Shown here one piece after another: positions 582 to 19,507 of a DNA stretch of 20,000 nt. The notes beneath the pieces are model-generated. The model had not been told where the DNA came from, ran no database searches, and saw only the letters and a list, made by a program, of their open reading frames with translations. Each line of letters begins with the position of its first letter. Position 1 is the first letter of the stretch. The position numbers and the translations under genes were made by a program. The stretch is taken from the sequence record DRR378314_1424. One strand, 5' to 3'.

Positions 582-1059
582 GGCCACGCTGGCCCGCCCT
601 GCGGCGCATCCCATCGTTGACAGATCCGGCTAGGGCAAACTCCGCTGGCCCGAGTTCCCGAGCGTTCATTGTTCTGTAATCCACACTGCCGTTGTGATCG
701 CCGGGGACCAATCCTCTGGGCGTCTTCCCCGCATTTTCTGCGCTGATGATGGCGGGTCCGTCAGGGCGACAAAGAGCTGGCTCCCCAGCTTCGCGACCCT
801 TGGCCCCTGTGCGGCAATCCCCGGTGACATCTGTTTTATGATTCCCGGGCGTGAATGCTTGCCAATTCGGCAGAACCTCGCCAGAACGTCACCGGATACA
901 ACGCAGGGTATATTCCACATCGACCAACACGACCACACGCATCCATTGCACGTGTTAAAAACGTGGCCTGCATTGCTAATTCGTTCCTGCCTAGTCTAAA
1001 TTTAGGACATCGGGCCGGTTTACACCATGTCAGCCACTCGTGCGGAGATAACCCTTTTC

Positions 1060-4000
1060 ATGACGCGCCCTGCACCGCATATCTCGGAGTTTCTGGCCGG
1101 CATCGGCCTGCCTCAACTGCTTGATCTGTTTTCCGCAGAAGACATTGATATGTCGACCCTGATGCTGTTGGACAAGGACGACCTGAAAGAGCTTGGCTTG
1201 ACCCTGGGCCAACGCAAGAAACTGCTGGCCGCGATGGATGCCTTGCCAGCAGCTGCGGGCGACGCAGCGCCTGCCGATGCCCCCCCCGAAGAGGCCCCGA
1301 TCCAGCTGCGCCGTATCAGCGTGCTGTTCTGCGATATTGTTGGCTCCACAGAGTTGAGCCAGCAGCACAGTATCGAAGACATGCAGATCATCATGCAGCA
1401 TTATTATCAGGTCGCTGATGACATCGCCCGACAGCATGATGGCTATCTTGTCGGCTCGCAAGGTGATGGTGTGGTCATCCTGTTCGGCTATCCGCGTGTC
1501 CTTGACGGATTTGCCGAACGCTGTGTTCAGGCGGCACAGAATCTACAACGCGCATTGGCGGAAAAGCTGGTGACCTTTGACGGACGGGCGTCGTTTCATA
1601 TCCCCACACGGATTGGCATTGCCACCGGGCAGGCCGCCGTCGGACAGGCCAGCGGGGCCCTGCGCGGAGATGCGATGCAACTGGTTGGCCCCGTGGTCAA
1701 TCGCGCCGCGCGGCTTCAGACCGTGGCCAACCCGCAATCCATTGTGGTGGACAGCAAGACCCAGCATCTGACCCGAAGTTCCGTACTTTATTCCGAGGTA
1801 GAGGCGCATGACCTCAAGGGGCTGCCCTCTGGCACTGAAGTGTTTCACGTTCTAGGGCTGCGCCATGAGGTCGAAGGCCCGGTTGCACCCGCCACGCTGA
1901 TCGGGCGTGACGGCGAGGCTGCCACCCTGCGCCGACTGTGGACGCAGGCGCAGGCCGGCACGCCGGTTACCGTCACAATCACCGGCGATGCGGGCATTGG
2001 AAAATCGACCCTGATCCAAAGTTTCGTGTCGATGCAGACCAACCCTTCGATGCGCGTCCTGCACCTGCATTGCGCTGCAATGGGTGCCCGCTCGCCCTTG
2101 TTGCCGGTGGCCAAAACACTGGATGCGCTGACCGCTTCAGGGGCGACAAACCCATCGCTCGCCAGTCTTCTCGGTGACCCGGCCCCGGAACTGCTGCACC
2201 GTGCCGCCCAGTTCCTCGGACTTGGTGCCGCACCTGCGGAAGATGTGACGCTTTCGCTGCGGGACCGTGACAGTATCCTTGATCTGCTTGGCCGCTGGAT
2301 CATCCGGGGGGCATCCGGCCCGACCCTGCTGTTTGTGGAAAACGCCCAATGGGCCGACAACTCCACTCGCGAGCTTTTGAAACGTGCCGCGGAACGTGCC
2401 CGCCGCGAGGGGGCTGCGCTGATGATGATCGCCGCAACGCGCGCAGACAGCCCCGACATCTGGATCGAACAGAAAGGCCATGAAACCCTGATCCTGCCGC
2501 CGCTGGATCAGCGCCATTGTGAAAAGCTGTTGCAGGGGATTTTTGGGAACAAGCCAATCCCGCACCCCATCCGTAACAACATCCTGAGTCATTCCGGCGG
2601 CAATCCCCTGATGCTGGAAACACTGGGCCAGGCGCAGGCCACGCAGCAACAGACAATGGTCGCAGGTTCGGTGGAAATCCCGCATACGATTTATGAATCC
2701 GTCTCCAAACGTCTTGACGGGATCCGTATGGGGCGCAGCGTGATCGAAGCCCTTGCAGTCTTGGACAGCCCAGCCAGCCCTTCCCTGTTAGCGGCGGTCC
2801 TTGATCGTGATGCCGACAGCATGAAACCGGCGATAGACGCATTGGAACAGGCCGGTCTGGTCTTGCGTGAGGGGACACAAGGACAGGAGGTGGCGACCAT
2901 CCGCCATCAGGTGTACCGAGATGTGATCTATGAACAGATCGTCGGACAATCCCGAAGGCGGCTGCACACGGCGGCCTATTCGGCGCTGGACGGATATTAT
3001 ACAGACACTGAGGCCCAGCGCCCTGATGTTCTGGCAACACATGCTCATGTCGCACGAGATTGGGAAAACACTGCCGCTCATGCGCTGGAGGCAGGCGAAA
3101 GCCTGCTGAAACGCTCTGCTCTGATCGAAGCGGGGCATTTCCTGGAAATGGCCAATGGCGCCATGCAACGGCTGCCGGGCAATGCTGCCAACAAGAAAAA
3201 ACACCTGCGTACGATCACCGGTCTCGCCTCTGTTGAACGGTCACGCTTTGGGATCGCGACGGACGCCAGTGCGGATCTTGGCACACAGGCGGTGCAACTC
3301 GCCCGCGAGCTTGGCGACAGCAAGACAGAGCTTTTAGCGCTGAACGGGCTTTATGCGCATTCATTGGTGCGGGCCAACTATCCGCAGGCGCAGGAATACG
3401 CCGAAACCCTGTTGGAAACCGCCAGCCACAGTCAGGACAAGACCTTTGTGATGATTGGCACCCGCGCCATTGGGGCCGTGGCGTTTCACCGATCCGACCA
3501 GAAAACCGCCCAGCGCAACCTAAGTCTGGCCTTGTCCCAATATGACAAGGACACCCATCTGCCTCTGGCCCATGCCCATGGCTATGACCACGCGGAAATC
3601 TGCGCGGCCTTCCTTTGCATGTCAAACTGGCTGACTGGTGATCTACAGCAATCGCGCCATTTTGGTGCCTTCTCCATCAACCATTCCCGTGAAATCGGCC
3701 ATGCCCATTCACTGGCGCAGGCAATGGCCTTTCGGGTCATGCTGGGGGCGCTTGCCCGCCATGGAACCGAACTTTCGGTGATTGCCAGCGAAGCCATTGC
3801 ATTAGGTGAAAAACACGACATCCGGGTGATGCGCGCCGCTGCCGTCCTGTTCCCTTTTGTCACCCAACTGTGCCTGCGGCCCGAACCGCCAAAACCTGCC
3901 GAGATGACTGACCTTGCCCTGCGCGTAAAAGAGTTTCGCGAGGTAAACCCCTTTAACTACGGGCCCTTGGTCGCCTCCTTGATCGCCGAAGCCTCTTTGC

Positions 4001-4353
4001 GGGCTGATGATATTGACGGCGCAGAGGCCGCCCTGTCAGAAGGTTCAACGCTTGAGCTGCGCACCGGTGAGACCTGGACAGCACCCGAATTGTTGCGCCT
4101 GCGGGCCTGCGTTGCCGCAGCGCGGGGGAAGGTCGAGATTGCCGGCCAGCTGCGTCAGGAAGCCTTGAAAAGTGCAACCCGCGCCGGTGCCCTGACGCTG
4201 GCGCTGCGGATCCTCTGCGACATTGCCGTGGCGGATCCCGGCCCGACCACAATCCAGCCTCTGCGTGACGCCCTGCAACGAATGGCATCCGATGATCAGG
4301 GGTGGGATACGCAACGCGCCACCGCCCTTGTTCAGGCCGTTGGCCTGACCTGA
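1060..4353 (+). CDS. SAM domain - class III adenylate/guanylate cyclase - AAA/STAND ATPase - TPR-like helical protein
   Basis: SAM domain (FLAGIGLPQ...DDLKELGLTLGQRKKLL); cyclase motifs VLFCDIVGST, GDG, RIGIATG and VNRAARLQ; Walker A GDAGIGKS; HSGGNPL motif; Ala/Leu-rich helical C-terminus. Start is 1060 (GGAG at 1044-1047) or 1027. Confidence 0.9.
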   Translation: MTRPAPHISEFLAGIGLPQLLDLFSAEDIDMSTLMLLDKDDLKELGLTLGQRKKLLAAMDALPAAAGDAAPADAPPEEAPIQLRRISVLFCDIVGSTELSQQHSIEDMQIIMQHYYQVADDIARQHDGYLVGSQGDGVVILFGYPRVLDGFAERCVQAAQNLQRALAEKLVTFDGRASFHIPTRIGIATGQAAVGQASGALRGDAMQLVGPVVNRAARLQTVANPQSIVVDSKTQHLTRSSVLYSEVEAHDLKGLPSGTEVFHVLGLRHEVEGPVAPATLIGRDGEAATLRRLWTQAQAGTPVTVTITGDAGIGKSTLIQSFVSMQTNPSMRVLHLHCAAMGARSPLLPVAKTLDALTASGATNPSLASLLGDPAPELLHRAAQFLGLGAAPAEDVTLSLRDRDSILDLLGRWIIRGASGPTLLFVENAQWADNSTRELLKRAAERARREGAALMMIAATRADSPDIWIEQKGHETLILPPLDQRHCEKLLQGIFGNKPIPHPIRNNILSHSGGNPLMLETLGQAQATQQQTMVAGSVEIPHTIYESVSKRLDGIRMGRSVIEALAVLDSPASPSLLAAVLDRDADSMKPAIDALEQAGLVLREGTQGQEVATIRHQVYRDVIYEQIVGQSRRRLHTAAYSALDGYYTDTEAQRPDVLATHAHVARDWENTAAHALEAGESLLKRSALIEAGHFLEMANGAMQRLPGNAANKKKHLRTITGLASVERSRFGIATDASADLGTQAVQLARELGDSKTELLALNGLYAHSLVRANYPQAQEYAETLLETASHSQDKTFVMIGTRAIGAVAFHRSDQKTAQRNLSLALSQYDKDTHLPLAHAHGYDHAEICAAFLCMSNWLTGDLQQSRHFGAFSINHSREIGHAHSLAQAMAFRVMLGALARHGTELSVIASEAIALGEKHDIRVMRAAAVLFPFVTQLCLRPEPPKPAEMTDLALRVKEFREVNPFNYGPLVASLIAEASLRADDIDGAEAALSEGSTLELRTGETWTAPELLRLRACVAAARGKVEIAGQLRQEALKSATRAGALTLALRILCDIAVADPGPTTIQPLRDALQRMASDDQGWDTQRATALVQAVGLT

Positions 4354-5675
4354 ACAAAAGCGCCGCCAAGGGTCAGGCGTTCCAGCAGTTTGAAAACAAG
4401 CGGCATGTCATGTTGACGGCCCAGCCGGTTCGCAATCTCTTGCAAGGATGCAGCAGGACGACAGGCCGCCGCAACATCCAGCGCGGTCACCGGCCCCAGC
4501 CCGGTCAGAAAATCATCCTGCACGCGAAGTTTAATTGCCGGTGCCCAATAAATGCGATCCTGTGACAGTACCGGGGCGCGGGTCAGTGGCGCGGCCAGCG
4601 TTACCGGACCTTGCAATACAAGCGCCGCTGGGGCGGATTGCACTTCGCGCGCGCTGCGGGCGGTCCAGAACGCGGTTTGAAACCGTGATTGATCCGCATA
4701 GGCACGATCCGTGGCAAGCTGCGCGGCAACCACCGCTGCCTGATGTTTGTGGCGCAAAAAACTCTGCGCCGCGTGGTCATCGCCAGTAGGATCAAGGATG
4801 GTCAAAGCGGCAATCGCCGTTTGAACCCCGCTGCGCAATGCATGGACCAACCCATGTGATGCAATCGGGTCCCGCGCCAATGCGGCATCCCCCACCAGCA
4901 AATGCCGCGCTGTGACAACAGGGTCCCCCACCGCAGACAGGCCCGCAGCAGCAGGTTTCCCCACAGTGATTGCAGATAGATAGGGGAAACAATCCGACTC
5001 CGCCAAACAAGCCCTCAGGTAAGCCGCGCGCGCCGCCGCCCCTTTTCCCGCAAGCGCTGCTGCGGGTTGGAACACCACACCTTGAACCTGACCTTCGGGC
5101 AATGAACAGGCCCAGAACCAGCCATCTGGCAAAGCCTCCAACCCCATCATAAAGGCGGGCGACTCCCCCCGCGCGGTAAATGGCAGGGCTGTGAGATCCG
5201 TGGCAGGGCGTTTGTTTGCATGACGTCCCCGGGCGTCAATCACCAGATCACACTGAACCTTGCCCGCATCCGTGTGCAATTGAACACCTTCGCCACACGG
5301 CCCAACGTCACGCACCCGCGCTTTTAACGCCCGTGCATATCGCAAGGCCTCCTCACGCAGGCTTTCATGCAAAGCACCACGGTGCAGCAGCAATGGCCCG
5401 GCACCTTCAAACGTGCGTAGCTCCGGGGCCTCACGCCAGACCATCTGCATCGCTTCTGCCGGTCCATCGCTGACGGCCCAGAATGCCTGAAGCAAGCCGA
5501 GCTCTTCTGCCAATGGTGCGCCGGATGGTGGAAAGCTCTCGATACCCTGACCCTTGTGAGGCGTGAGCGGATCAATCAGCAGGACGTCGATACCCGCCAG
5601 CCCCAGCTGGCGTGCGGCAATTGCCCCCGCCGGTCCTGCCCCCAATACAGCAACCTGCGCCTTATGCCTGCGCAT
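4332..5675 (-). CDS. FAD-dependent monooxygenase, LodB/GoxB/QhpG-like (putative tryptophylquinone-forming flavoprotein)
   Basis: GAGPAG Rossmann motif, ESFPP (cf. GESLPP), IDARGR, GWFW, VGDAALARDPIASHGL, and late YADQSRFQTAFWTAR, followed by a C-terminal extension. ATG at 5675 overlaps the radical SAM stop by 14 bp; the ORF track start at 5699 is the alternative. Confidence 0.8.
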   Translation of the reverse strand: MRRHKAQVAVLGAGPAGAIAARQLGLAGIDVLLIDPLTPHKGQGIESFPPSGAPLAEELGLLQAFWAVSDGPAEAMQMVWREAPELRTFEGAGPLLLHRGALHESLREEALRYARALKARVRDVGPCGEGVQLHTDAGKVQCDLVIDARGRHANKRPATDLTALPFTARGESPAFMMGLEALPDGWFWACSLPEGQVQGVVFQPAAALAGKGAAARAAYLRACLAESDCFPYLSAITVGKPAAAGLSAVGDPVVTARHLLVGDAALARDPIASHGLVHALRSGVQTAIAALTILDPTGDDHAAQSFLRHKHQAAVVAAQLATDRAYADQSRFQTAFWTARSAREVQSAPAALVLQGPVTLAAPLTRAPVLSQDRIYWAPAIKLRVQDDFLTGLGPVTALDVAAACRPAASLQEIANRLGRQHDMPLVFKLLERLTLGGAFVQVRPTA

Positions 5676-6984
5676 CAAACCAATCCGGCTGCGCCGCACT
5701 CAAGCGCCCGTAGGCGCGCAGCCCGTAGTCCAGCCAGCCCCGCACAAAGTCGCAGGCCGGTCGCCCCGCATGCAGCACCTCCTGATGGCAGCCACCGCCG
5801 CACAGCCGCCGGGCCCAACAGGTTTGGCACGGGGTTTGGCGTTCTACCGTGCGGGCATCTAGAAAGGCCGCGCGCGCGACATCATCCGGCCCGCTCTCCA
5901 GATCCCCCATCGCCCCCAGCGGATCTTTGACAAAGCGATGACAGGCGGAATAATCGCCAGCAGCATCCACTGCAAGATAATCACGCGCCGCACCACAGCC
6001 ATGGCTGCGCGGGCTGCCGCGATGAAGTTCGCCCAGAACCGTGGCGAGATTGGCAAAAGGATGGCTGCGCCCCGCGAGTGTCGCGCGCATCCAAGCGTCA
6101 CCACAGGCCGTCATCGCCGCCAGCAATTGTGCAAAATCCTGCCCGGCCAAGGCACCCTGCCCCGTGGGCGACGAAATCATCGGCGACACCCCAACCGAGG
6201 CAAAACCCAGCGCGGCAATATCATCAACCACCTGCAGCAGATCGAGATTTTGCGGCGTCACAGTCACCCGCGCGCCCAGCGAAATCCGGTCGCGATGCGC
6301 CAGCAGCGGTGCAAGGCGCTGCGCGACGCGGGCAAAGCTGCCCTTGCCCGCGCGATCAGGGCGCAGGCGGTCGTTCACCGCCTTGCCACCATCAAGGCTT
6401 ACCGTCACGGCAAACCGGTGGCGGGCGAAAAACGCAGCGTCCTCGGGGGAAATCAACGTGCCATTGGTGGTCAGGGAATAGCCCACCTGAATGGCCCGCG
6501 CAGCACCACGTTTATTTGCGTAAGTCACGGATTTTCGGATCAAATCCCGCGCCACCATGGGCTCCCCCCCCATAAAGGCAATCTTGACCCCGCCACCCGG
6601 AACGGTGGCATAAATCAACTGGTCAATCGCACGTTTGGCGACTGTCCAACCCATGCGCGTATCCGCCCCGCCAAAACTGCCACCCGCCGCGTAGCAATAG
6701 CCACAGGCCAGATTACAGGTTTGCGATACCGTCAGGGCCAGCGCCCGTACCGGATGGATTTCTGTATCAGGTGGCGTGCTAAGCGGCACAGCGTCGAGCC
6801 CCAAACGCGCCAGCTCAGGCGCGGCAGCTGCATCACCGGCCAGCAAGGCCGCACGCAGTTTCGTAGCCTGCGCATCCGACAGGCCAAAGATTGCAGCCGT
6901 TTCTGCCATCAGCACCAGATCATCCGCCACATGGGCCAGACCGCTGACCGGCTTCTGCATCAGATCAGGCAAAACCACCGTCAT
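5662..6984 (-). CDS. Radical SAM/SPASM protein maturase (QhpD/CteB-like) with probable N-terminal RRE
   Basis: CNLACGYC (CxxxCxxC), FMGGEP, TTNGT and VSLDG motifs; SPASM cysteines CGAARDYLAV...ACHRF and CQTCWARRLCGGGC...C; ~80-aa N-terminal extension. ATGA overlap with the upstream gene at 6981-6984. Confidence 0.92.
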   Translation of the reverse strand: MTVVLPDLMQKPVSGLAHVADDLVLMAETAAIFGLSDAQATKLRAALLAGDAAAAPELARLGLDAVPLSTPPDTEIHPVRALALTVSQTCNLACGYCYAAGGSFGGADTRMGWTVAKRAIDQLIYATVPGGGVKIAFMGGEPMVARDLIRKSVTYANKRGAARAIQVGYSLTTNGTLISPEDAAFFARHRFAVTVSLDGGKAVNDRLRPDRAGKGSFARVAQRLAPLLAHRDRISLGARVTVTPQNLDLLQVVDDIAALGFASVGVSPMISSPTGQGALAGQDFAQLLAAMTACGDAWMRATLAGRSHPFANLATVLGELHRGSPRSHGCGAARDYLAVDAAGDYSACHRFVKDPLGAMGDLESGPDDVARAAFLDARTVERQTPCQTCWARRLCGGGCHQEVLHAGRPACDFVRGWLDYGLRAYGRLSAAQPDWFDAQA

Positions 6985-8792
6985 TTCAGGTTTGCAAAAA
7001 ATGGTATGCCGATGTTCTTGCGGGCAAGCGCCAAGGCCATGTCGCTGAGGTCATGCATGGCATCACGGGCCTTTTTGATTTCGGTGTTGGCCTGGGGCAT
7101 ATCGCCCAGGTTTGCCTCGATCAGATACCCTTTGCCCAGGGCCTCAAGTGCAAGGTCAATCAGATGCAGCGCCGGTTGTACCTCTGCGGCGTCCGGCTTG
7201 GCCTCTTTGACGGGGCGCAGATACAGGGCTTCCTGCGCGGCATAAGGCTGCAGTATCCGCATCACATCGCGGAATTTTTGATAGTGCTGCATCCCGTCGC
7301 TGTCGATCCGAACGGCCAGCTGGTACAGGCCTTCGGGAAAGTGATCCATATACTCGCGCAAATAGGCCACCAGCTTGACGTATTCGGTATCCAGATCCCC
7401 GCCGGGGCGTTCAATATCAACAAAGTTCTGCAAGACAGCCTGTGTTGCCGGGCGCAATTCACCGGTCCCGCTATGCCCGGTCTTACTGTGCGGGTCCGCT
7501 TCGATCTTGGTCGGTGATAGGACGGGTTCATATGTGCCAACTTCCGGATAGGCGGCAAAAATCAACCACAACGTCTGGTTCACCCAGCGCAGATGGGTCA
7601 TTTCACTCAGCGCTACAGATAGGATCAACTGCCGCGCGGCGCGCAGATCTTCTGTCAGGCCGGGCCATGCGGCCTCTTGATCCGGCGTCACCTCATCCGG
7701 TTCGCGCAGGCTGAAATAGGCGTAAAGATACTCCAACGCCAGCGTCAGCTCCATCCCTGCCAATTCGTGCAGGTCGTCGATCAATTCTTCCAGTTTTTCG
7801 TAAGGCTCTTGCGGCTGCAACTTTAGCAAATCCGTTGTCCCCTCGGCCTCCTGCCCTTGCAGAACAAAATCCAGCTCCTCCCAATGCAGGTTGATTTCGT
7901 ATGGATCGTACCGATCCGGGCGCGCCTTTTCCAAAGTGGTCTGCGCCGAGACATCCTTGAGCGGCAAATGCCGTCTGCGCATCCAGTCGATAAAGGTAAC
8001 TGCCTGCGCCGGATCATCCTTATCGGTGCCATCAGGCAGCTGTTGTGGATCATCCACCTCGCCCAAGACAACATCGGGATGGTTTGACGCCCAGTAATGA
8101 CAGGCGCAATCCCGAAAATCATGGGTCCAGGGGCTGCACATGGAGGAAGTAAGTTCACCGGGGTGATAGACCGGATCAATCATCCCCTCTTCGTTCAGAA
8201 ACATGCGCCGCCGGCCGGTCAGCACCACAGGCGCGCCACTGGGTGATCCGTCAGGGCCGCGTTGCGTCAGGGCAATGGTCAGAGGTTTCTCTGCTTCAAT
8301 CAGGCGAATAATCCACCATACAGTTTCACCCTCATAAGGGACCAAACCGACACCGTTCTGATACAGCGAATAGTCATACATCATGATCCGTTTGCCGTCC
8401 TGTTCGACAAAATGCAGATACCATGTGCCACTGCCCAGCGCCGTACCGGCGGGACCGGCAAATTGTTTCTTCAGGTCAGTGACCCAATCGGGACCGTCAT
8501 CGGTATATTTATCCGCAATGATCGGATCACCCTTGGGGAAAGCATAGGTCAGCCGCGCCCCCTGTGTGCCATCCGGCCCGGCAGGGGTGATGCCAAGGAA
8601 TTCAAACACCAGCCCCGGAAAGAACCGCACATCCAATTGGCGCAGGTCGAATTCCAACCCCGGAAAACAGTTACCGACACCGGATTCCATCAAGGTCGAC
8701 ACCGGATTGCCCAATACCGGTTCGCGGTAGGCCGGATTGCCGTCAGCATCAGCCTTGCGGGCCTTGTTCAATTGTCTGGGTCCGGCTGTCAT
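6981..8792 (-). CDS. LodA/GoxA-like CTQ-cofactor (C-terminal) module fused to a ferritin-like domain
   Basis: GNCFPGLE, PGELTSSMCSPWTHDFRDC, YWASNHPDVV and WEELDFV match the LodA C-terminal motifs (PG.E; PGDLT..M..PWQ.DF..C; WWP..RPD.V; W..LGF). A ferritin-like region follows: ELTLALEYLYAYFSL, EMTHLRWVN, FVDIERP, HYQKF. ATG at 8792 has GGAGG 7 nt upstream and an ATGA overlap. Confidence 0.8.
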   Translation of the reverse strand: MTAGPRQLNKARKADADGNPAYREPVLGNPVSTLMESGVGNCFPGLEFDLRQLDVRFFPGLVFEFLGITPAGPDGTQGARLTYAFPKGDPIIADKYTDDGPDWVTDLKKQFAGPAGTALGSGTWYLHFVEQDGKRIMMYDYSLYQNGVGLVPYEGETVWWIIRLIEAEKPLTIALTQRGPDGSPSGAPVVLTGRRRMFLNEEGMIDPVYHPGELTSSMCSPWTHDFRDCACHYWASNHPDVVLGEVDDPQQLPDGTDKDDPAQAVTFIDWMRRRHLPLKDVSAQTTLEKARPDRYDPYEINLHWEELDFVLQGQEAEGTTDLLKLQPQEPYEKLEELIDDLHELAGMELTLALEYLYAYFSLREPDEVTPDQEAAWPGLTEDLRAARQLILSVALSEMTHLRWVNQTLWLIFAAYPEVGTYEPVLSPTKIEADPHSKTGHSGTGELRPATQAVLQNFVDIERPGGDLDTEYVKLVAYLREYMDHFPEGLYQLAVRIDSDGMQHYQKFRDVMRILQPYAAQEALYLRPVKEAKPDAAEVQPALHLIDLALEALGKGYLIEANLGDMPQANTEIKKARDAMHDLSDMALALARKNIGIPFFANLK

Positions 8793-10606
8793 ATTTTTTC
8801 CTCCGCGGCGGGCGTTTCGACCTGTGGCTGCACGCTGTGCTTCCATTCTCCCTCCAGTTTTTCGAGGTACTTCATCAGCAGGTCATATTGCCGACGCGTG
8901 ACTGACAGCGGTACCCCCATCGAATGGCGCATATAGGGCGGCATACGCATGTCGTAGGTTTGGGCAATGGTCACACGCGGATCGCGAAATTCAATATCAT
9001 CCGGCCCGTTTGCGCCAAAATCAACCGATGGCCCTTTTTGCACACCGGGGATTTTCGCCAGCTCTCCCACATGGGCAAACGGCGGACGTACAATGCGGCG
9101 CACACGGTCAGGATCGCGCAGCAGGAAGGCCCGCAGGATCGGGCTATCGCACATGCGGGCATGCACCTGTTGCACCACTTGGGTATAGGGCAGACGGTCA
9201 TTCGTGCCCGATCGGGGCTCTATTGTGTCACCCTGCCCCGGTGTATATTCCGGCACCAGGCTGGCATAGGGCGCATCACTTTCGCGCATGGATTTCGGCC
9301 CCAGATGCGGGGTGATACCGGCATCCCAGTTGGGATCGTTTTCATTGGGTTCACTCAGCAATTGGGCATTGCCATCCAGCGCCCAAGAGCGGCGTTGATC
9401 CAGATTGATCAGGCTGGCGGTTTCGAAAATTCGGCGGAACAAGTCCAGAATTTCAACCGGTGTTTCGTCAATATCAAGCGTTGCAGGCGGCAGATCACGG
9501 TCTTCCAATTCGTCTTGTATCGAATACATCGGACGTTTGTCCGGTGCGAAATCGGGAGGGCCTGCCATGGCACGGGCCTGTGCCACATGCGCCTTGCCCT
9601 CCACTGCCATCTGCGCCGTCAGCACCAAATCGCAGGTATCGTCGATCAAGCCCCAGCCATTTCCCGACCCGACACGCGCGCCATCATAGCTGTCCATCGG
9701 GGTGGGCCATTTGGGTGTGTTGTCAGTGCGGAAATTATACCCTGACCACGGGGTGTCGGAACTCAGGATGCGGTTTTCCTTGCGGGTCATTTTGTGGATC
9801 GGGCCGTATTCCGTCATCGGTGGTTCAAATCCACCTGCCGGCAGGGGAGAGGCCGGTGCCTTGGCCGCTTCGGGTGGACCAAAGCTGTCGCCCTTGCCGG
9901 GAATAAAGCGGATCCGCACCTGATCCAGCCGGGTTTTACAGCTGATGTTTTCGAGGTTTTCTTTAAACGTCCTGATCTTGCCCAGTGGCAACGGCGCATC
10001 CTCGCGCACCAGTGGCACCTGCCCTTCGGTATGCGGGCTGATCGCGTCCAGATGATGAGTCTTATAGTGATCCGCAGCAAACACCTTGCGGGCCACCGCC
10101 GCACAGGAGGCCAGTTTGGTGCGCGATTCCGCTTTGCGGTTGGCCGCCTCGACAGTGAATTGCAGATGTTTCAGGCTGGTGCCGCGTTTCTCAAGGAAAT
10201 GACGTGTCACCGGCACCTGCACTACGGTGCCGTCAGGATCCTGAAGCCGCGCCCAAAGTTCAAAGAAAGGGGCCACCGGTTTGATCTTGCCATAACGGTC
10301 CTTGAAAGTGACGCGCATTGGTGTCTGCACCTTCAGGGTAAATGGGTGGTGGCCGTTGCCCTTGACCGAGGTTTCGATCAGGCTGGGGGCGGGTTCGATC
10401 ATGGTCTGTACCCCGCGTGCCGGATTTTCATCCAGTTTCCAGCGATAGGCGGGCATCGGTTCTTTCGAGCGCCCCACCCGTGCAATTGCCATCGGCGGGT
10501 CAAAGAAAATGCCCAACATCCGGCCCTGCGTCGGATCACGGCCACACCATGGTTCGCAAGTTTCAGGATCTGCATGGGTGCAGGGTTTTAATCTATCGGT
10601 CGTCAT
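8789..10606 (-). CDS. LodA/GoxA-like N-terminal module (lacks the cofactor residues)
   Basis: PPMAIARVGRS (cf. HPAIGIARVGNS), FKDRYGKIK, FTVEAANRKA (cf. WTVHLANKKA), DDTCD, GPPDFAP and LSVTRRQY occur in LodA order. Start is 10606 (AGGGA upstream); 10615 and 10642 are alternatives. Confidence 0.8.
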   Translation of the reverse strand: MTTDRLKPCTHADPETCEPWCGRDPTQGRMLGIFFDPPMAIARVGRSKEPMPAYRWKLDENPARGVQTMIEPAPSLIETSVKGNGHHPFTLKVQTPMRVTFKDRYGKIKPVAPFFELWARLQDPDGTVVQVPVTRHFLEKRGTSLKHLQFTVEAANRKAESRTKLASCAAVARKVFAADHYKTHHLDAISPHTEGQVPLVREDAPLPLGKIRTFKENLENISCKTRLDQVRIRFIPGKGDSFGPPEAAKAPASPLPAGGFEPPMTEYGPIHKMTRKENRILSSDTPWSGYNFRTDNTPKWPTPMDSYDGARVGSGNGWGLIDDTCDLVLTAQMAVEGKAHVAQARAMAGPPDFAPDKRPMYSIQDELEDRDLPPATLDIDETPVEILDLFRRIFETASLINLDQRRSWALDGNAQLLSEPNENDPNWDAGITPHLGPKSMRESDAPYASLVPEYTPGQGDTIEPRSGTNDRLPYTQVVQQVHARMCDSPILRAFLLRDPDRVRRIVRPPFAHVGELAKIPGVQKGPSVDFGANGPDDIEFRDPRVTIAQTYDMRMPPYMRHSMGVPLSVTRRQYDLLMKYLEKLEGEWKHSVQPQVETPAAEEKI

Positions 10607-12188
10607 GGCGTTCATTCCCTGTCTTATCCTCGGGTGTGTCATGCACCGGTGGTTTCTGATCGGGTTTCAGCCCCAGACTCTGTTCAAACCAGAACATATT
10701 GTGCGGATCAAACTTGGCCTTTGCCGTTTGCAAACGCGGTAGGTTGGTGCCGAAATAGGCCTCCAAAAACCCTTTGGTCCCGCGACGCGGATAGTTTTGG
10801 TAACGGTGGCCATTGCCCATAGGGGCAACGATACCACCCAGCCCGTCAAGCCAGCCAATCGACGCTTCCTTATGGGTGTCGAACGTCCAAAAGGCCCAGC
10901 TAAACAGATCAACCGATGGCGTGCGGTGGAAAAAAGCCATCTCGTCGGGTTTCGGGTCAGCGATTGCGCCGCCATAGAATTCCATCGCGATGAAACAGGT
11001 TTTGTCCGGCGCTTCGAGAAAATGATCAACGACATTGCGCCAACGGTCCGCACTGTGATGTTCCTCGATCAGCCACCCTTCGACCAGCGGTTTGGTGTTC
11101 ATAGACACGGTTGGCATGTCATGACCTGCCGGATTTGCGGTCTGCAACAACAGCTCGTTCAGGCGGGTGTAATGGTGTTTATGTGTCCAGATTTCCACAT
11201 CTTTGCGCGGGTCTTCCAATGTGGCCAGCAGGGGGCCAAGGGCAGCCTCAGCTTCGGCGCGGGAACCATCATAAAGACCGCGCAGAGACAGGCAGGGGAT
11301 TTGCCCGTCAGGGTGATCTGCATCCGGCAGATACATCAGCAAGGCCTGATGCCCCATCTTGGGCGGGCCGGAATTGGAGTATTCCGCCTGCAAGGTTTCC
11401 AGCACCCGGCAGATCCGCTGAATATCCGCCTCATGTTTGTGGCGCATGTTCCAGCGCAGGCCAAAACCAAAGAACTTACGGTCCAGCGGCACAGGGTCAT
11501 AGGTCACTTCCAGAAGGATACCAAACTGGTTGCCGGTCCCACCGCGGATCGCCCAAAACAGATCGGGGTTTTCTTCCGCACTGGCGCTCAGCACAGACCC
11601 ATCCGCCAGTGCCACCTTCACACCGATCACACGGTCACAATTCATCCCAAACAGCCGCGAGGTGAAACCGTAGCCTCCGCCCATCATATATCCGGCCACA
11701 TTCACAGTCTCACACCCACCGCCGGGCAGATGCAGTTTGTGATGGTCCAGCATGCGGTTCAACTTGCGAAAGGTGACACCGGGCCCACAGCGCACGGTCG
11801 GCGTTTGCCTATCTACCTCCAGATGGTTCAAGCCAGAGGTGTCAATCACCACCTGATCGTTTACCGAATAGCCGGCGGTGCAATGCCCACCGGAACGGGC
11901 AGTCACCTGCAACCGTGATTTGCGCGCAAACTCCAGCGCGGCAAGCACATCCGTCTCGCATTCGCAAAACACAATGACCTGCGGGTATTGCTGGTAGGTA
12001 TGCATGAAAACCATGCGGTCGTCATTGTATCCGGGAGCCCCTGCCAATTGAATACGGCCGCTGAGGCGTTGTTGTAATTTGTCTAAATGTTTTTGTTTGT
12101 AGTCAGGTAGGCCGGATTCTTTGGTCTTAAATGTTTTCCACTTCGCTTCGTGGCGATGATGGTGGTGGCGATGGTCACCATGCGTCAT
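10593..12188 (-). CDS. FAD-binding oxidase, berberine-bridge-enzyme/VAO family, probably bicovalent FAD
   Basis: RSGGHC (covalent His), GGGCETVNVAGYMMGGGYG (covalent Cys position), DLFWAIRGG, and C-terminal YQNYP...YFGTNLPRL...KFDPHNMF. Strong RBS GGGGGAG upstream. Confidence 0.92.
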   Translation of the reverse strand: MTHGDHRHHHHRHEAKWKTFKTKESGLPDYKQKHLDKLQQRLSGRIQLAGAPGYNDDRMVFMHTYQQYPQVIVFCECETDVLAALEFARKSRLQVTARSGGHCTAGYSVNDQVVIDTSGLNHLEVDRQTPTVRCGPGVTFRKLNRMLDHHKLHLPGGGCETVNVAGYMMGGGYGFTSRLFGMNCDRVIGVKVALADGSVLSASAEENPDLFWAIRGGTGNQFGILLEVTYDPVPLDRKFFGFGLRWNMRHKHEADIQRICRVLETLQAEYSNSGPPKMGHQALLMYLPDADHPDGQIPCLSLRGLYDGSRAEAEAALGPLLATLEDPRKDVEIWTHKHHYTRLNELLLQTANPAGHDMPTVSMNTKPLVEGWLIEEHHSADRWRNVVDHFLEAPDKTCFIAMEFYGGAIADPKPDEMAFFHRTPSVDLFSWAFWTFDTHKEASIGWLDGLGGIVAPMGNGHRYQNYPRRGTKGFLEAYFGTNLPRLQTAKAKFDPHNMFWFEQSLGLKPDQKPPVHDTPEDKTGNERHDDR

Positions 12189-12473: not shown

Positions 12474-12905
12474 TTACGCCGCATCAGGCGCTTTGCATAA
12501 CCTCCAGAACTCTTGCAAAGTCTTAAGCACATCAGAGAGCTCTGACGCGCTGTCCGGTTTTACAATATAGCCATTCGCATTGTTCTGATACGCAAGCTCC
12601 ACATCTTTTTTGCTTGCTGATGTTGTAAAGACAAACACACGCGCCAGTTTGATTTCTTCGGTTTTTCTCAACTTCGCAAGAAATTCATGCCCGTTCATGC
12701 GCGGCATGTTGATGTCCAGCAAGATGACATAGGGACGGTCAAGCCGCTCGCTGAGCGCCTCGTCACACAGGATTTCCAGTGCTTCCACGCCATCTTTCGC
12801 GCGTAACAGGGATCCGGTCGACCCCAGTTTCCTCAACGACCGTCTGAGTATTTCCACGTCTACGTCATTGTCTTCGACCAGTAAGATGTTCATGTCATGT
12901 TTCAT
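12474..12905 (-). CDS. Single-domain response regulator (Rcp1-like receiver)
   Basis: ILLVEDN, ILLDINMPRMNG, FTTS and ANGYIVKP motifs. ATG at 12905 lies directly after the kinase stop; the longer ORF-track start overlaps the kinase. Confidence 0.92.
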   Translation of the reverse strand: MKHDMNILLVEDNDVDVEILRRSLRKLGSTGSLLRAKDGVEALEILCDEALSERLDRPYVILLDINMPRMNGHEFLAKLRKTEEIKLARVFVFTTSASKKDVELAYQNNANGYIVKPDSASELSDVLKTLQEFWRLCKAPDAA

Positions 12906-12906
12906 C

Positions 12907-14688
12907 TTATGCGGCCCTTTGTGACAGAAGAGATGTGGACTGCGACAGAGTACAAGGCCAGTCGAAATGGAAGGTCGCCCCCCTTCCAAGTTCAGACTGA
13001 ACCGTGATCTTACCACCATGGCGTTCGACCGCTTTTTTGACAATCGCCAGACCAATACCGGTGCTTTCGGGCATATGAGCCAGTCGAAGCGTCTGAAATA
13101 CCTTGAAAATTCGATCATGAAACTTCGGATCGATACCCGGACCGTTATCGGATACTGAAAAACAACAACGATCTCCTTCAAGTTTGGCCGATACAACAAT
13201 CTGCAGCGGATCCGTACCGTCGTAGTATTTCACGGCATTCCCGATAAGGTTTTCCAAAACACGGCGCAGATTCACGGTATCCACATCAACGGCTTCGATA
13301 TCTCCGTTCAGCACCAGTTGGTCTTCCCCCAGGCCCAGATCCAGGATCAAATCAACAAGCGCCCCTTTCAGATCCAGATGCCCAGTTTCACCGGCATGCA
13401 CATCAACCTTTGCATACTCCATGATGCCTTGCGTCAGTTGATTCATACGAACAACGCGGCTTTGAATCAGATGCAGGTTTTGGCGAACTTCCGGGTTTGC
13501 GTCTGCTGATGCAAAATACTCTTCAAGGTCCTCCTCGATCATCTCTGTCAGCCCGTTGATCCCGCGGATCGGCGTTTTCAGGTCATGGGACGCGATATAG
13601 GCAAATTCCTCAAGCGCCTCATTCTTCACCGACAATTCCTTGTTCATCGTGTTAAGCCTTGCGGTCTTGGCCTTTAGGGAAACGGTCACCTCGTCAGCAT
13701 AGGAAATCGCCCGCTTGTTCGCCCGCGCCATGAGGAACAGCAGCGCGATAATCAACGCCTCGATCACCAGACCGGCAATCAGAATATATGTTGATTGCGA
13801 ATAGGTGTTTTGCCCGCGAAACGCGAGGTTGCTCCGAATGTCGACGGTCCAGGTGCGCCCGTAAAGATTGATCGCAACCAGATCCGAATGCATCGGGTCG
13901 GCGTCATGTAATTCATCTATTGCAGCATGTTCATCGTAAATCAGGCTGCCGTCATCATGGATGCTAAAACGCACATTGCGCAGCTCTGTTGCCAGCAACC
14001 CTTGCATCAGCTTGTGAACAACAAATGGGGCATAGACCGCGCCGGCGGGCACACCGTTGTTTTCAAAGGGCGCATAGAACAGAAATCCCGGCGTGCTGCT
14101 TTCATCCTGAACAAGGGTGATGGGGCCGGTGATCTGTGACGTGCCTGTATCTCTGCTGGCCAGTGCGGCCGTGCGCCGGTTGGTTTCATGTGCGACGTCC
14201 AGCCCGATGGCCGCCGCATTACTGCTTTCCGGCTCGATATAGGTAATCGGCATATAAAATGACTGCTCATGTTCCGGGAAAATCCGGAATTCCGGTCGGC
14301 TGCCGCGTTGTTCGGCCAGATAGGCGTCCAATGTCTGTGCAGTTTGGAAATGGATCACACCGATCCCGTTAATACCCGGATATTTTTCATGAATATCCAA
14401 TGTCTGTGCAAAGGCATGCCAATCCTCATAGGAGATATCCCCGCCATGTGACTCAATGGCGGCCACGCCCGCCCAAAGTGCATCCTCGTATTTTTCCATG
14501 CGGTCCACTATCAATGCCAAAGCGCGATCGCGCGCGGCCTCAAAACGCAGGCTGACCCGTGTTTCAATTTGCTGCCGCGAAAACTGCCAGGCGAACAGGG
14601 TCAAACACAGGGAAAGAGTAACCACAATAACATGGATCGCTTTGATCCGGCTTTCTGCATTTGCAGGTATTTCATGCATCTGAGTCAA
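12907..14688 (-). CDS. CHASE-domain sensor histidine kinase
   Basis: Two TM helices flank a CHASE domain (YPGINGIG, YIEP, AIGLD, ITLVQD, GRTW). H-box FAYIASHDLKTP, N-box NLIGNAVKY, DNGPGI and GIGLAIV are present. TTG at 14688 follows AGGAGG; alternatives are 14679 and 14724. Confidence 0.92.
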   Translation of the reverse strand: MTQMHEIPANAESRIKAIHVIVVTLSLCLTLFAWQFSRQQIETRVSLRFEAARDRALALIVDRMEKYEDALWAGVAAIESHGGDISYEDWHAFAQTLDIHEKYPGINGIGVIHFQTAQTLDAYLAEQRGSRPEFRIFPEHEQSFYMPITYIEPESSNAAAIGLDVAHETNRRTAALASRDTGTSQITGPITLVQDESSTPGFLFYAPFENNGVPAGAVYAPFVVHKLMQGLLATELRNVRFSIHDDGSLIYDEHAAIDELHDADPMHSDLVAINLYGRTWTVDIRSNLAFRGQNTYSQSTYILIAGLVIEALIIALLFLMARANKRAISYADEVTVSLKAKTARLNTMNKELSVKNEALEEFAYIASHDLKTPIRGINGLTEMIEEDLEEYFASADANPEVRQNLHLIQSRVVRMNQLTQGIMEYAKVDVHAGETGHLDLKGALVDLILDLGLGEDQLVLNGDIEAVDVDTVNLRRVLENLIGNAVKYYDGTDPLQIVVSAKLEGDRCCFSVSDNGPGIDPKFHDRIFKVFQTLRLAHMPESTGIGLAIVKKAVERHGGKITVQSELGRGATFHFDWPCTLSQSTSLLSQRAA

Positions 14689-14819
14689 ACTTTGATCCTC
14701 CTGTTGGAATCTCTGCCTACTCAAAATGTATTGATATTCGATTTATCTTTTTTACCTGTTTGTATGACGCCCGATCGCTTGCCTGTCAGCGGATACCCAC
14801 GCCAAAATCCATGGTGCGA

Positions 14820-15125
14820 TCAGGGCGACAGTTCACTTTCCGCCAGAAGGGCCGCCCAAGAGGCCCCGTGAATATCGCGATCCATCCGCGCGCCCTGAAT
14901 AAAGGGGCGCGGCAGGCTGAACTTGACGACGTTCAAATCAGCGATATCAAAACGTTTGATCTCTTGGGTCGCGACATCAAAGACCTGCGCGACCTGACGG
15001 GTGGATAGGGTATTAACAACCTGATCATAAACATCTGAATCACCACAGAAAATATCAATGGTCAGCCAAAACGGCCCGGCATTCTTGCTGCGGACTTTCT
15101 GTACAATGTCACCCAACCTAGCCAA
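14820..15125 (-). CDS. DUF4387-family small protein (AtuA-associated)
   Basis: VRSKNAGPFWLTIDIF and DRDIHG motifs. TTG start follows GGAGG and overlaps the upstream stop. Confidence 0.8.
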   Translation of the reverse strand: MARLGDIVQKVRSKNAGPFWLTIDIFCGDSDVYDQVVNTLSTRQVAQVFDVATQEIKRFDIADLNVVKFSLPRPFIQGARMDRDIHGASWAALLAESELSP

Positions 15126-16473
15126 TTTCATGCACCTCCAATGTGAAAGCATCCATCGGATTCTCGAGCTGCAGAACATGGTTCAGCGTAAATTCAAACA
15201 CCTCTCCGCGTGGCATTTCAGGCGGCGAGAAAAGAAAGGCGAAGGTCGGCACCTCTTCTTCCTGTGTCAAAGGATGATGCAGCAGGTAGGGGTTCAGCAG
15301 CTTGGCAATTTCCTGTGACAGGCCTTCGGATTTGGCCGTCACAATACCCATCGCGCAAATCTCTGTCGGGGTGATTTGTTTGGTTTCAAGCATCCCGAAA
15401 CTTGCAGAGTGCCCAAGCAGCCGGATTTCAATCGAAAAGGCATCGGCTTCCAGATGCAGACGGTCCACTACCTTGGCGCTGCATTTCCCGACAATGTCAT
15501 CTGCCCAGATCTGGGCATTCTGCACATATCTTTCATCCCGCAACAGCGCCATGGTCACGGTTTGAAACCCCGCGCCGCGCGCGCCTTCCAGCTTGACGGT
15601 ATAGCGCTCTGACGGCACCCATTCCGATCCGGTGACGCGCACGGATGTATCATTCAGCGGTTGATATTTCGCTTTGGAAACATCCAGATACCCGCCCGGT
15701 TCATGCAGAATAAAGGGGTCCGAATTTTCATAGAGCATATGTGCCGAAACTGTATGCGGGGTGGCCTTTGCCCCATCTGCAAGCGGCGTCACGGTGAAGC
15801 CTTCCGCATCAAAATCGATCAGGATCACACCTGATTGCGGATTGGTCGCACATAGCGCCCCACATTCGCCGATCTTGGCCCCATGCCAAGCGCCACCAGC
15901 ATGGCAGCCTCTCTGTAGAGGCAGCGCTGCGATGATCGCCGTATCCGTTGTGCGCCCTGCAATGATGATATCCGCCCCGGTGTTAAGCGCCTCGGTAATC
16001 TGTTCCGCCCCGGCAAGGGCAACAATATTGCTACAGCTTTCGATCAGCGCGGCATCGACATCCGGCGCGTTTGGCAAGGGCGTCACGCGCCCCTGCGTAA
16101 AGGCTTGGGCCATTTCTGCGGGGTGTTGTGAACTGCGCAGAACGGCGACCTTAACCGGGCGGCCTTGCTCGGCTGCGATCTCGCGGGTGATGTCAAGCAT
16201 CCAGTCCACGGCGCTGTCCGCCCCGCAGGTGCCTGCCGTGCCGATCACCAAGGGACAGCCGGCATCGGCCCGCGCCTGCATCAGCCCAGCCCATTCCACC
16301 TTGGTCGAGCTGCGGGCATATTTTGACATGCCCCGCCCCAGATAGGCAGGGCCGCTGTCGGTTGAACCACCGTCAATTGCAATGATATAGGGCTTCGCCG
16401 CGATACCCCGCTGCAAAGCCACGGCATCATAGTTCAGACCCAAGGCACCGGAAGGAACAAGCACACGTACCAT
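15118..16473 (-). CDS. AtuA-family (DUF1446, acyclic terpene utilisation-like) protein
   Basis: PSGALG, DGGSTDSGPAYLG, GADIIIAGRTTD, WHGAKIGECGA and AHMLYENSDP motifs. TGATG coupling to tctA. Confidence 0.85.
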   Translation of the reverse strand: MVRVLVPSGALGLNYDAVALQRGIAAKPYIIAIDGGSTDSGPAYLGRGMSKYARSSTKVEWAGLMQARADAGCPLVIGTAGTCGADSAVDWMLDITREIAAEQGRPVKVAVLRSSQHPAEMAQAFTQGRVTPLPNAPDVDAALIESCSNIVALAGAEQITEALNTGADIIIAGRTTDTAIIAALPLQRGCHAGGAWHGAKIGECGALCATNPQSGVILIDFDAEGFTVTPLADGAKATPHTVSAHMLYENSDPFILHEPGGYLDVSKAKYQPLNDTSVRVTGSEWVPSERYTVKLEGARGAGFQTVTMALLRDERYVQNAQIWADDIVGKCSAKVVDRLHLEADAFSIEIRLLGHSASFGMLETKQITPTEICAMGIVTAKSEGLSQEIAKLLNPYLLHHPLTQEEEVPTFAFLFSPPEMPRGEVFEFTLNHVLQLENPMDAFTLEVHEIG

Positions 16474-17978
16474 CAATCCGTTACCGCCTGTGGCTTCTTG
16501 AGGATACCGCGCAGGAACATCGGTGCGACAAACCCCGCCACCGCCGCAATCCACAAGCCAATCGCAATCGGGCTGGAAAAGAGATAGGTCACATCACCAT
16601 CCGACAGGGTCATCGCCCGGCGCAGCGCGTCTTCCATATTCCCGCCCAACAGGATGCCAAGGATCACCGGCACAGTTGGAATATCCAGTTTGCGCAGGAA
16701 ATACCCAAGCACCCCAAAAGCCACCATCAACAGCAGATCGAAATAGCTGCCGGACAGTGAATAAATCCCGACGAAAGAAATCATCGTGACTCCGGGCAAC
16801 AGAATCCACGCTGGCACCATCAGAATTTTCACAAAGATCTTCACCATCGGCACGTTCATCAGCAACAGGACCACATTGGCGATCAATAGGGAGGCGATCA
16901 GCCCCCAGACAACCTCTGGTCGGTCGGTGAACAAGGTCGGACCGGGCGTGATGTTAAGCGTCATCAATAGCGCCAGCAGCACCGCCGTTGTGCCTGAACC
17001 GGGCACACCCAAGGTCAGCATCGGCACCAGCGCCCCGCCTGCCGCCGCATTGTTCCCTGCTTCTGGCGCCGCAATCCCTTTGGGCACGCCGGTGCCAAAA
17101 CCACCCTTTTCACCAGCAATGGATTTCTCTGTCATATAGGCAAGGAAAGATCCCAATGACGCCCCGGCCCCCGGCAGGATACCTGCAACAAACCCCACAC
17201 CAGAGGCGCGCAGCATCGTCCATTTGCTATGCCAGATGTCCGTCCATGGGATGCGCACCTTATCAAGGATCACCCCGATCGACGATCCCTTGCCATGGGA
17301 TTCGATAAAGAAAAACAATTCGGCTACGGCAAACAGCCCGACGATGGCCACTAGGAAATCAATACCGTCAAACAGATGCAGGTTGCCCCCCGTCAGACGC
17401 GGCAGTCCCGATGATTGGTCCACGCCAATCATCGCAATACCCAGCCCGATACAGGCAGCAAGTGCGGCCTTGGCCTGATTGTTCGACGCCATGCCACCCA
17501 ACGTGCAAAAGGCAAGCAGGTAGAGGGCAAAATACTCCGCAGGCCCAAAAAGGAACGCCACACGGGCCAATGAGGGGGCCAGCAGCATCAACCCCACGGT
17601 GGCCAGCAAGGCACCGACAAAAGAGGCAACACCGGATAGCACCAAGGCATCCCCTGCCCGTCCCGCCTTGGCCATCGGATAGCCATCCAGCGTAGTCATC
17701 AAGGCAGGCTCATCTCCGGGAATGTTCAGCAGAATCGAACTGATCCGCCCGCCATACATCGCGCCGTAGTAGACCGATGTCATCAGCACCAATGCCGATG
17801 TGGCATCAAGCCCCAACGTAAAGGTGATTGGGATCAGGATCGCCACACCGTTGGACGGGCCAAGCCCAGGCAGAGCCCCGATGATGGTGCCAAGGAAACA
17901 TCCACAGACCGCAAGGAATAATGTGTAGGGCGACAAGGCCACGGTAAACCCCAAGGCGAGGTTGGCTAGGATATCCAT
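16473..17978 (-). CDS. tctA: Tripartite tricarboxylate transporter large permease TctA
   Basis: GALPGLG, YYGAMYGGRISSILLNIPG and APEAGNNA...TLGVPGS motifs; multiple TM helices. Confidence 0.95.
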   Translation of the reverse strand: MDILANLALGFTVALSPYTLFLAVCGCFLGTIIGALPGLGPSNGVAILIPITFTLGLDATSALVLMTSVYYGAMYGGRISSILLNIPGDEPALMTTLDGYPMAKAGRAGDALVLSGVASFVGALLATVGLMLLAPSLARVAFLFGPAEYFALYLLAFCTLGGMASNNQAKAALAACIGLGIAMIGVDQSSGLPRLTGGNLHLFDGIDFLVAIVGLFAVAELFFFIESHGKGSSIGVILDKVRIPWTDIWHSKWTMLRASGVGFVAGILPGAGASLGSFLAYMTEKSIAGEKGGFGTGVPKGIAAPEAGNNAAAGGALVPMLTLGVPGSGTTAVLLALLMTLNITPGPTLFTDRPEVVWGLIASLLIANVVLLLMNVPMVKIFVKILMVPAWILLPGVTMISFVGIYSLSGSYFDLLLMVAFGVLGYFLRKLDIPTVPVILGILLGGNMEDALRRAMTLSDGDVTYLFSSPIAIGLWIAAVAGFVAPMFLRGILKKPQAVTD

Positions 17979-17979
17979 T

Positions 17980-19448: not shown

Positions 19449-19507
19449 TGGTTCCTCCCATTTGGCAACCGCGATTCCATCCGCGGTTGTTGTCACCAAA
19501 CGCTATC

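Follow-up and report, generated by a model that had tools for sequence, protein, structure and literature searches.

A distant LodA/GoxA-like enzyme encoded by two genes in an operon with relatives of the maturases QhpD and QhpG

The minus strand of DRR378314_1424, a stretch of DNA of 20,000 nucleotides that was analyzed over its full length and is hereafter called the window, carries two adjacent genes, A and B, which are a native and ancient two-gene form of a distant LodA-like enzyme and not a broken gene. Their operon combines features of both known cysteine tryptophylquinone (CTQ) systems. According to the 2025 review PMC11951088, three enzymes are known to carry CTQ, and they mature it by one of two routes: LodA and GoxA are served by a flavoprotein only, and quinohemoprotein amine dehydrogenase (QHNDH) by a radical S-adenosylmethionine (SAM) enzyme together with a flavoprotein, acting on a small separate subunit. 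The best reading of the operon, which we hold with somewhat better than even confidence, is that it specifies a native two-subunit enzyme with a CTQ-like cofactor matured in the QHNDH manner. The five genes listed here, whose coordinates come from the open reading frame (ORF) listing and from Pfam and NCBIfam annotation, would form one translationally coupled operon.

10593 to 12188, minus strand: BBE-type FAD-linked oxidase, first gene of the operon (Pfam FAD_binding_4 1.1e-29, BBE 1.8e-13)
8789 to 10606, minus strand: gene A, predicted to encode about the first two thirds of a LodA/GoxA-like fold (model fold comparison)
6981 to 8792, minus strand: gene B, predicted to encode the remaining, C-terminal part of that fold, followed by a ferritin-like domain (Pfam, colinearity with relatives)
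5662 to 6984, minus strand: QhpD-like radical SAM/SPASM maturase (TIGR03906 5.1e-91, 305.6 bits)
4332 to 5699, minus strand: QhpG/GoxB/LodB-like flavin monooxygenase, start codon uncertain (NF049967 QhpG 2e-64, 218.1 bits)

A preliminary description of this DNA, made from the letters of the sequence, had proposed a LodA/GoxA-like enzyme split into two genes. The nine motifs that it quoted are all present in the two translations and in the order described, which is also the motif order of LodA and GoxA read across A and then B. The proposal itself was upheld by comparison with relatives and by fold comparison. Residues 42-597 of A (numbered throughout from its longest ORF, 10642 to 8789 on the minus strand, 617 amino acids) and 28-598 of B align to residues 4-540 and 585-1144 of a fused relative, P0124; both chains also map in order onto single-chain relatives of 723-753 amino acids, with B colinear with their C-terminal third. 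A profile built from four fused and four single-chain relatives and searched against PDB sequences gave 12 matches at E <= 0.01, comprising nine GoxA, two LodA and one bacterioferritin (best E 1.4e-4), and the matches to LodA and GoxA fall in four colinear motif blocks.

The model of A (predicted local distance difference test, pLDDT, 71) has the three-dimensional fold of LodA (L-lysine epsilon-oxidase of Marinomonas mediterranea; 3WEU, 2YMW) and GoxA (glycine oxidase; 6BYW). Foldseek placed GoxA at the top (E 7.5e-8), with the best 15 of 32 significant matches all GoxA. VIA-align gave Z 13.3 against LodA 3weu_B (root-mean-square deviation 3.1, 201 residues aligned), Z 12.7 for A 44-596 against residues 2-420 of LodA 2ymw_A, and Z 12.3 for A 43-616 against residues 4-544 of GoxA 6byw_D, with the next unrelated entry at Z 7.9. 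In the ESM Atlas, the clusters nearest to A carry LodA_N/LodA_C, with scores of 0.98 and 0.95. On these models, A corresponds to roughly LodA residues 2 to ~420.

The kinship of A plus B with LodA and GoxA is real but distant, and the pair falls outside the curated LodA/GoxA families. Neither chain matches NCBIfam NF038172 (LodA) or NF038173 (GoxA) at E <= 0.01, and the cut-offs of these two families are 600-750 bits, of which the fused and single-chain relatives reach 15-36. LodA and GoxA are single polypeptides (chains of 726 and 816 amino acids), as the preliminary description had said, whereas here there are two. The operon also differs in having a radical SAM maturase, a C-terminal ferritin-like domain and a BBE oxidase, none of which figures in the lod/gox operons as presented in the operon sections of PMC4417212.

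The two genes meet in a short overlap, preceded by a strong ribosome-binding site, just as it had first been quoted:

8789 to 8804, minus strand: A/B junction, with GGAGG at 8804-8800, a 7-base spacer, ATG at 8792-8790 and TGA at 8791-8789

The start codon of B overlaps the stop codon of A, and the Shine-Dalgarno sequence lies inside gene A; from the overlap and the GGAGG, we predict that A and B are translationally coupled. The same arrangement recurs at the next boundary, where the ATG of the radical SAM gene (6984-6982) overlaps the TGA of B (6983-6981), again as ATGA. A profile of B retrieved 466 genomic relatives, and 80 loci were kept for counts of gene arrangement, which were corrected by reading the junctions by eye. 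Two separate genes, broken at the same place, were found in 78 of these 80 loci; in-frame fusions with short Pro/Ala-rich linkers occupy the other two (L055 and L071). In six loci (L074-L077, L079 and L080), A and B are kept apart by the radical SAM gene, and in 72 they are adjacent but separate. Among these 72, the overlap is 4 bases in 42, 8 bases in 22 and 11 bases in two, giving an overlap of one of these lengths in 66 of the 80 loci; four more have gaps of 7-32 bases, and two are apparently damaged (L027 and L053). The break always falls between the helix after TRRQY in A and the P-x-N-x-T-A motif of B, a region that in single-chain relatives is a poorly conserved linker. The linker-like tails noticed in the preliminary description are in keeping with the low pLDDT at A 604-617 and B 1-14, the same ends that are poorly conserved.

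Several individual loci were examined at this boundary. An automatic flag had marked L053, L057, L060 and L067 as possible fusions, and reading of the junctions showed all four to be split. In L053, a metagenome-assembled genome, the tail of gene A is frameshifted just past TRRQY (5860-6010), probably through an assembly error, and B still starts with a GTGA overlap. L020 (P0057) is rearranged: of A, just the last ~65 residues remain ahead of B, the operon partners are missing, and the database annotation of P0057 is an amidohydrolase (PF04909) fused to PF12902. The order A, radical SAM gene, B, in which the halves are non-adjacent, occurs in cyanobacterial loci and in one Terriglobia locus.

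A split that arose as an artefact, or as a recent pseudogenizing frameshift of a single LodA-like gene, would agree with A and B lying in different frames, as from a one-base slip, and with the existence of fused homologs (the two loci above and 15 database proteins). We assign it next to no probability, and it is already refuted in practice. The preliminary description had asked whether close homologs are all fused and whether reads carry an indel at ~8790; instead, 78 of the 80 loci have two genes with the same break, 42 of them with the identical 4-base ATGA overlap, and contigs from three DNA runs (three studies, one run of which may be the source sample) span 8789-8792 without gaps or indels. 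No RNA run is listed among the sequencing runs that carry this DNA; contigs of two further runs, guessed to be RNA, cover part of gene A and stop short of the junction. Likewise against a frameshift are the six loci with another gene between A and B, the GGAGG placed 7 bases ahead of B's ATG, and the fact that both ORFs are full length and conserved. That this is a native two-gene LodA-like enzyme is, in our judgment, very probable.

Fused forms have a history of their own. In protein databases, 114 of the 120 best relatives of B are 572-644 amino acids long (search range 331-1056), and a search of longer proteins returned 15 fused A-B forms of 1123-1183 amino acids. We built a tree of 98 B-type rows, made up of the window, 79 loci and 18 fused database proteins; L067, a short match, was left out, and P0275 and P0281 probably duplicate L055 and L071. 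The fused state requires at least seven changes of state on this tree, and the placement of all fused forms in a single clade was rejected (p-AU, approximately unbiased test, 6.7e-6; the group was named after a first tree was seen). The Ruegeria fusion L055 is nested among split Ruegeria loci, and every locus in the window's own clade is split.

Modeling suggests that the two chains assemble. When B was modeled alone, the conserved LodA-like segments 1-48 and 220-326 stayed under pLDDT 50, and Foldseek and VIA-align on this model returned only ferritin-like folds. A complex of A 40-605 with B 1-335 was then assessed in three runs with three controls and scored 0.73 (runs 0.73, 0.47 and 0.77), against 0.00 for the best control. 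The mark used for this score is attained by 51 of 78 solved complexes and two of 108 mismatched pairs. Contact agreement between the runs is at least 22%, and the partner pLDDT is at least 27. The modeled docking centers on one segment of B:

8670 to 8732, minus strand: B 21-41, conserved N-terminal segment (..LGNP.S....GVGNC, just ahead of FPGLE), docked on A in the model

This segment, which contains invariant alignment columns, contacts A at 48-55, 63-68, 85-88, 105, 123-128, 237, 364-379 and 396. The complex model supports A-B binding as a prediction, and we regard a stable complex as probable. The preliminary description had raised the failure of the halves to assemble as a concern, which the joint model does not share. 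It had further proposed an evolved heterodimer with the cofactor-bearing half on a separate chain; the location of that half gains support from the residues D225 and C229 on B (see below) and the partnership from the complex score, with binding and cofactor both remaining predictions.

The C-terminal half of B is a domain of a different kind:

6993 to 7814, minus strand: ferritin-like four-helix-bundle domain, B 327-600 (VIA-align, Pfam PF12902)

B matches Pfam Ferritin-like PF12902 with 36.6 bits (cut-off 22.3), and the domain is modeled with pLDDT mostly above 90. By VIA-align, B 327-600 has the same fold as CC_0557 (3hl1_B; Z 19.6, root-mean-square deviation 3.0, 228 residues aligned; next entry Z 11.8), the difference from such PF12902 proteins being its fusion, in B, to the C-terminal half of a split enzyme. 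E348, E397, H400, E461, D497 and H503 are invariant; they make a di-metal site possible, and the domain may handle O2, H2O2 or electrons. We know of no function for the PF12902 family. In five fungal loci, according to the portion of PMC4417212 that treats them, LodA-like genes are associated with PF12902 genes. An N-terminal PF12902 domain ahead of a LodA-like part is present in P0237 (checked with Pfam), and P0248 and P0261 are similar in length and in placement of the match.

The confident folding of this domain on its own would also suit a scheme in which A and B work separately and share no active site, A being for example a binding or scaffold protein and B a ferritin-like enzyme. Free-standing PF12902 proteins such as CC_0557 (3hl1) exist, and A-like modules are found fused to other domains, as in P0149, where a STAND NTPase is fused to an A-like part. 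Such separate roles seem improbable to us, given that A has been fused to B repeatedly and independently, that single-chain relatives are colinear through both A and B, that the conserved B 1-48 and 220-326 are not predicted to fold without A, and that the complex model passes its controls. As a side observation, P0208 and P0284 are proteins of 1650 amino acids that combine molybdopterin-oxidoreductase domains with LodA_N.

The cofactor-bearing part of the enzyme is placed by alignment on the second chain, B, in the following segment:

8073 to 8138, minus strand: putative cofactor site, B 219-240 (C219, D225, C229, C231, W234, D240), by alignment to LodA

The CTQ of LodA is formed from C516 and W581, as stated in the LodA sections of PMC4417212 and PMC10851380. 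When the single-chain relative P0252 was aligned to LodA 493-526 and B to P0252, LodA D512 and C516 fell on B D225 and C229, and a second profile gave the same pairing (3weu, E 2.6e-3); because of this correspondence, we place the cofactor-bearing part on B. Across 29 sequences that include single-chain relatives, C219, P221, W222, D225, R227, C229, C231, Y233, W234, P239 and D240 are invariant. Two of these, C219 and C231, are extra relative to LodA and GoxA, whose aligned segments have no Cys at either position.

Three invariant Trp residues follow C229, namely W234, W270 and W304, and all three are on chain B. W234 aligns with the Trp of GoxA WAANLP past a 10-residue GoxA insertion, in GoxA matches that reach E 0.44 only; the LodA Trp opposite W304 is a later one, near residue 627, and LodA W581 was outside every alignment obtained. 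The cofactor Cys and Trp of GoxA are 15 residues apart, a spacing that would fit W234. We lean, by a little, toward a CTQ-type cofactor on B.

The two genes downstream of B have their nearest curated families among the QHNDH maturases. For the radical SAM enzyme, the best NCBIfam family is QhpD (TIGR03906), at a score under the equivalog cut-off of 453, and comparison with canonical QhpD gives 32-36% identity at all 11 of the qhpC loci; it also matches the thioether-forming peptide maturases PapB (2.7e-74) and SCIFF (1.6e-62). For the flavoprotein, the best family is QhpG (NF049967), again at a score under the cut-off (240), followed by GoxB (1.4e-25) and LodB (1.4e-12), both under cut-off, so that the LodA/GoxA partner flavoprotein likewise has a homolog in the operon. 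By tblastn at E <= 1e-8, the 80 related loci contain the radical SAM gene in 76 cases, the flavoprotein gene in 48 and the BBE homolog upstream of A in 68, some of the missing partners being contig ends. The operon is conserved across Proteobacteria, Acidobacteria, Acidimicrobiia and Cyanobacteria.

The likeness to QHNDH (QhpABC) extends to the layout of the enzyme, in which the cofactor-bearing polypeptide is separate from a larger subunit, as here, and to the site motif, where the pattern C-x5-D-x3-C...W-x5-D lines up between QhpC and B 219-240. Eleven QhpC sequences have an invariant C, D, C, C, W and D. In QhpC numbering, we take the thioethers to be C27-D33 and C41-D49 and the CTQ to be C37-W43; hhalign pairs B C219, D225, C229, W234 and D240 with QhpC C27, D33, C37, W43 and D49. 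The systems differ in that QHNDH has QhpC (Pfam model of 75 positions), whereas this operon has no QhpC family member and B is 603 amino acids long. Canonical qhpC (PF08992) occurs in none of 13 genomes of the nearest genome's genus, in six of 201 genomes of the order and in six of 401 of the phylum; thus, in that genus, the maturase genes do not belong to an ordinary qhp operon. Between 12188 and 12474, beside the operon, there is no Cys-rich small ORF, and none of the annotated window genes has the domains of diheme QhpA or beta-propeller QhpB, at which no dedicated search was aimed. Because both extra Cys occur in families linked to radical SAM enzymes and not in the aligned LodA and GoxA, C219-D225 and C231-D240 are the candidate thioether pairs. 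Radical SAM thioethers in the B motif are a tentative proposal, to which we give a little less than an even chance.

The same data bear on a real two-subunit enzyme on a LodA-like scaffold whose cofactor is something other than CTQ, such as another radical-SAM crosslink or the di-metal center of the ferritin-like domain, with a role that may be biosynthetic oxidation together with the BBE oxidase instead of the oxidation of amines or amino acids. All curated LodA/GoxA thresholds were failed, C219 and C231 are additional invariant residues, PapB and SCIFF are scored nearly as well as QhpD, the BBE oxidase is kept in most of the related loci, and PF12902 is also a domain named in VioB-type annotations. 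The retained Asp-x3-Cys site with its nearby invariant Trp speaks against such a cofactor, as does the flavoprotein, which scores best against QhpG, GoxB and LodB, the three CTQ maturases known; we judge it rather unlikely, at about one chance in four.

The radical SAM gene is shared with uncharacterized relatives that have no split. The single-chain family of P0252 (~750 amino acids) comprises 356 genomic relatives, in Bacteroidota, Acidobacteriota, Verrucomicrobiota and others, from which 80 loci (L092-L171) were examined. Its members share the invariant site motif of B, and A and B map onto them in order with ~27-30% identity. In 79 of these loci the next gene downstream encodes a QhpD-like radical SAM enzyme, and 58 have a QhpG-like gene; in contrast to the split form, neither a ferritin-like domain nor a BBE oxidase occurs within 8 kb in any of the 80. 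Thus, the radical SAM link is independent of the split and belongs to a larger superfamily. We had considered that the split might serve to present the radical SAM enzyme with its substrate on a free chain, an idea weakened by the near-universal retention of the gene beside single-chain enzymes.

Under the QHNDH-like reading that we favor, A and B would be two natural subunits of one enzyme with a LodA/GoxA-fold core, A giving the N-terminal ~two thirds and B the rest, including the Asp-x3-Cys site and probably a di-metal ferritin-like domain. The chains would form an obligate complex, with B 21-41 packed on the N-terminal beta domain of A. The flavoprotein would make a cysteine tryptophylquinone from B C229 and a conserved Trp, most likely W234, which it would oxidize for linkage to C229, and the radical SAM enzyme would add QHNDH-like Cys-to-Asp thioethers at the two candidate pairs. 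The product would be an amine or amino-acid oxidase or dehydrogenase. More broadly, the operon and the larger set of single-chain cousins may constitute a third, undescribed class of tryptophylquinone enzymes, with a LodA-like scaffold and a QHNDH-gamma-like, thioether-caged Cys-Trp quinone built by QhpD-like and QhpG-like enzymes and carried, in this branch, by a subunit of its own that also includes a di-metal ferritin-like domain. This wider proposal is speculative, and we put its chances at roughly one in three.

Several points weigh against the reading of a CTQ-like, QHNDH-style enzyme. The binding, cofactor and activity of the A/B enzyme are predictions from sequence and models. Profiles and fold comparison were needed to reach LodA and GoxA at all, because phmmer searches of A or B singly against PDB sequences returned neither at E <= 10, just chance-level matches. 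A matches no Pfam family, LodA_N (PF17990) included, and no NCBIfam family at E <= 0.01, and B 146-241 matches Pfam LodA_C (PF18417) with 24.3 bits, just under the 25-bit cut-off (E 2.9e-5). The complex model may recall the intrachain packing of LodA and GoxA, since these were solved as single chains, so that its passing score may reflect fold memory; the partner's own fold is uncertain in the model (pLDDT 28-30), which did not draw on our alignments. W234, W270 and W304 are all candidates for the cofactor Trp, with W234 the most likely. The B motif has no statistically significant match to QhpC (hhalign probability 2.7%, P 0.017; 1jmx_G, E 0.75), and we dropped homology between the two in favor of a likeness at the level of the pattern. 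Finally, radical SAM maturation does not call for the split and leaves the selective advantage of two chains unaccounted for.

Some details of the genes and their surroundings complete the picture. The true start of gene A is likely 10606 rather than 10642, because the resulting MTTDRLKPC... matches the starts of close relatives; from there, the gene overlaps the stop of the upstream BBE gene by 14 bases. Gene B from 8792 encodes the 603 residues numbered here, and its longest version begins at 8846 (minus strand). We favor 8792 because of the GGAGG and the conserved ATGA overlap. A database protein identical to B (P0001, 621 amino acids) is called from the upstream ATG at 8846, and a close Sulfitobacter relative, P0002, has 604 amino acids. 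Reading of the upstream translations by eye revealed one more feature in A:

10535 to 10582, minus strand: Cys-rich N-terminal tail of A, residues 21-36 (C21-x-H-x-D-x3-C29-x-P-W-C33-G-R-D36)

This tail, possibly a metal knuckle or a further site of modification, is specific to the window's clade; it is present in closer relatives (among L001-L029) and gone from L030 onward, the more distant A relatives beginning directly before the FFxPPMAIARVG motif. Upstream of the operon lie a CHASE-domain histidine kinase and a response regulator (12474-14724, minus strand), and downstream a convergent SAM-domain/adenylate-cyclase/AAA-ATPase protein (1027-4353, plus strand); these are possible regulators of the operon. 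Farther upstream (15118-19499, minus strand) are an AtuA-like gene and a TctA/TctB/TctC tripartite tricarboxylate transporter. Promoter-like sites (two, against 3.7 expected) and terminator-like sites (10, against 8.1) in the window are at chance level, with none at the A/B junction.

In the literature that we searched, which did not extend to the supplementary gene table of the 2015 census of LodA-like genes, there is no description of a split LodA-like enzyme or of a link between a LodA-like enzyme and a radical SAM maturase. That census, as its search is described in PMC4417212, used BLASTP with a GoxA query at E 1e-10, a threshold that A and B would not be expected to reach. The preliminary description, for its part, had included neither the spread of the split as a family nor the ferritin-like domain of B, the QhpD- and QhpG-like maturases or the sub-threshold family scores. 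The operon joins a LodA-like fold to QHNDH-like maturases and puts the putative cofactor site on its own chain. If this is correct, the range of protein-derived quinone enzymes would be widened by ~466 split-form and 356 single-chain genomic relatives, which would offer a natural series of split and fused enzymes for asking whether the cofactor is installed before or after the subunits assemble, and the PF12902 ferritin-like domain would gain its first functional context. If the proposal of a third class is also correct, two CTQ systems that have so far been treated as unrelated would be linked through one maturation logic.

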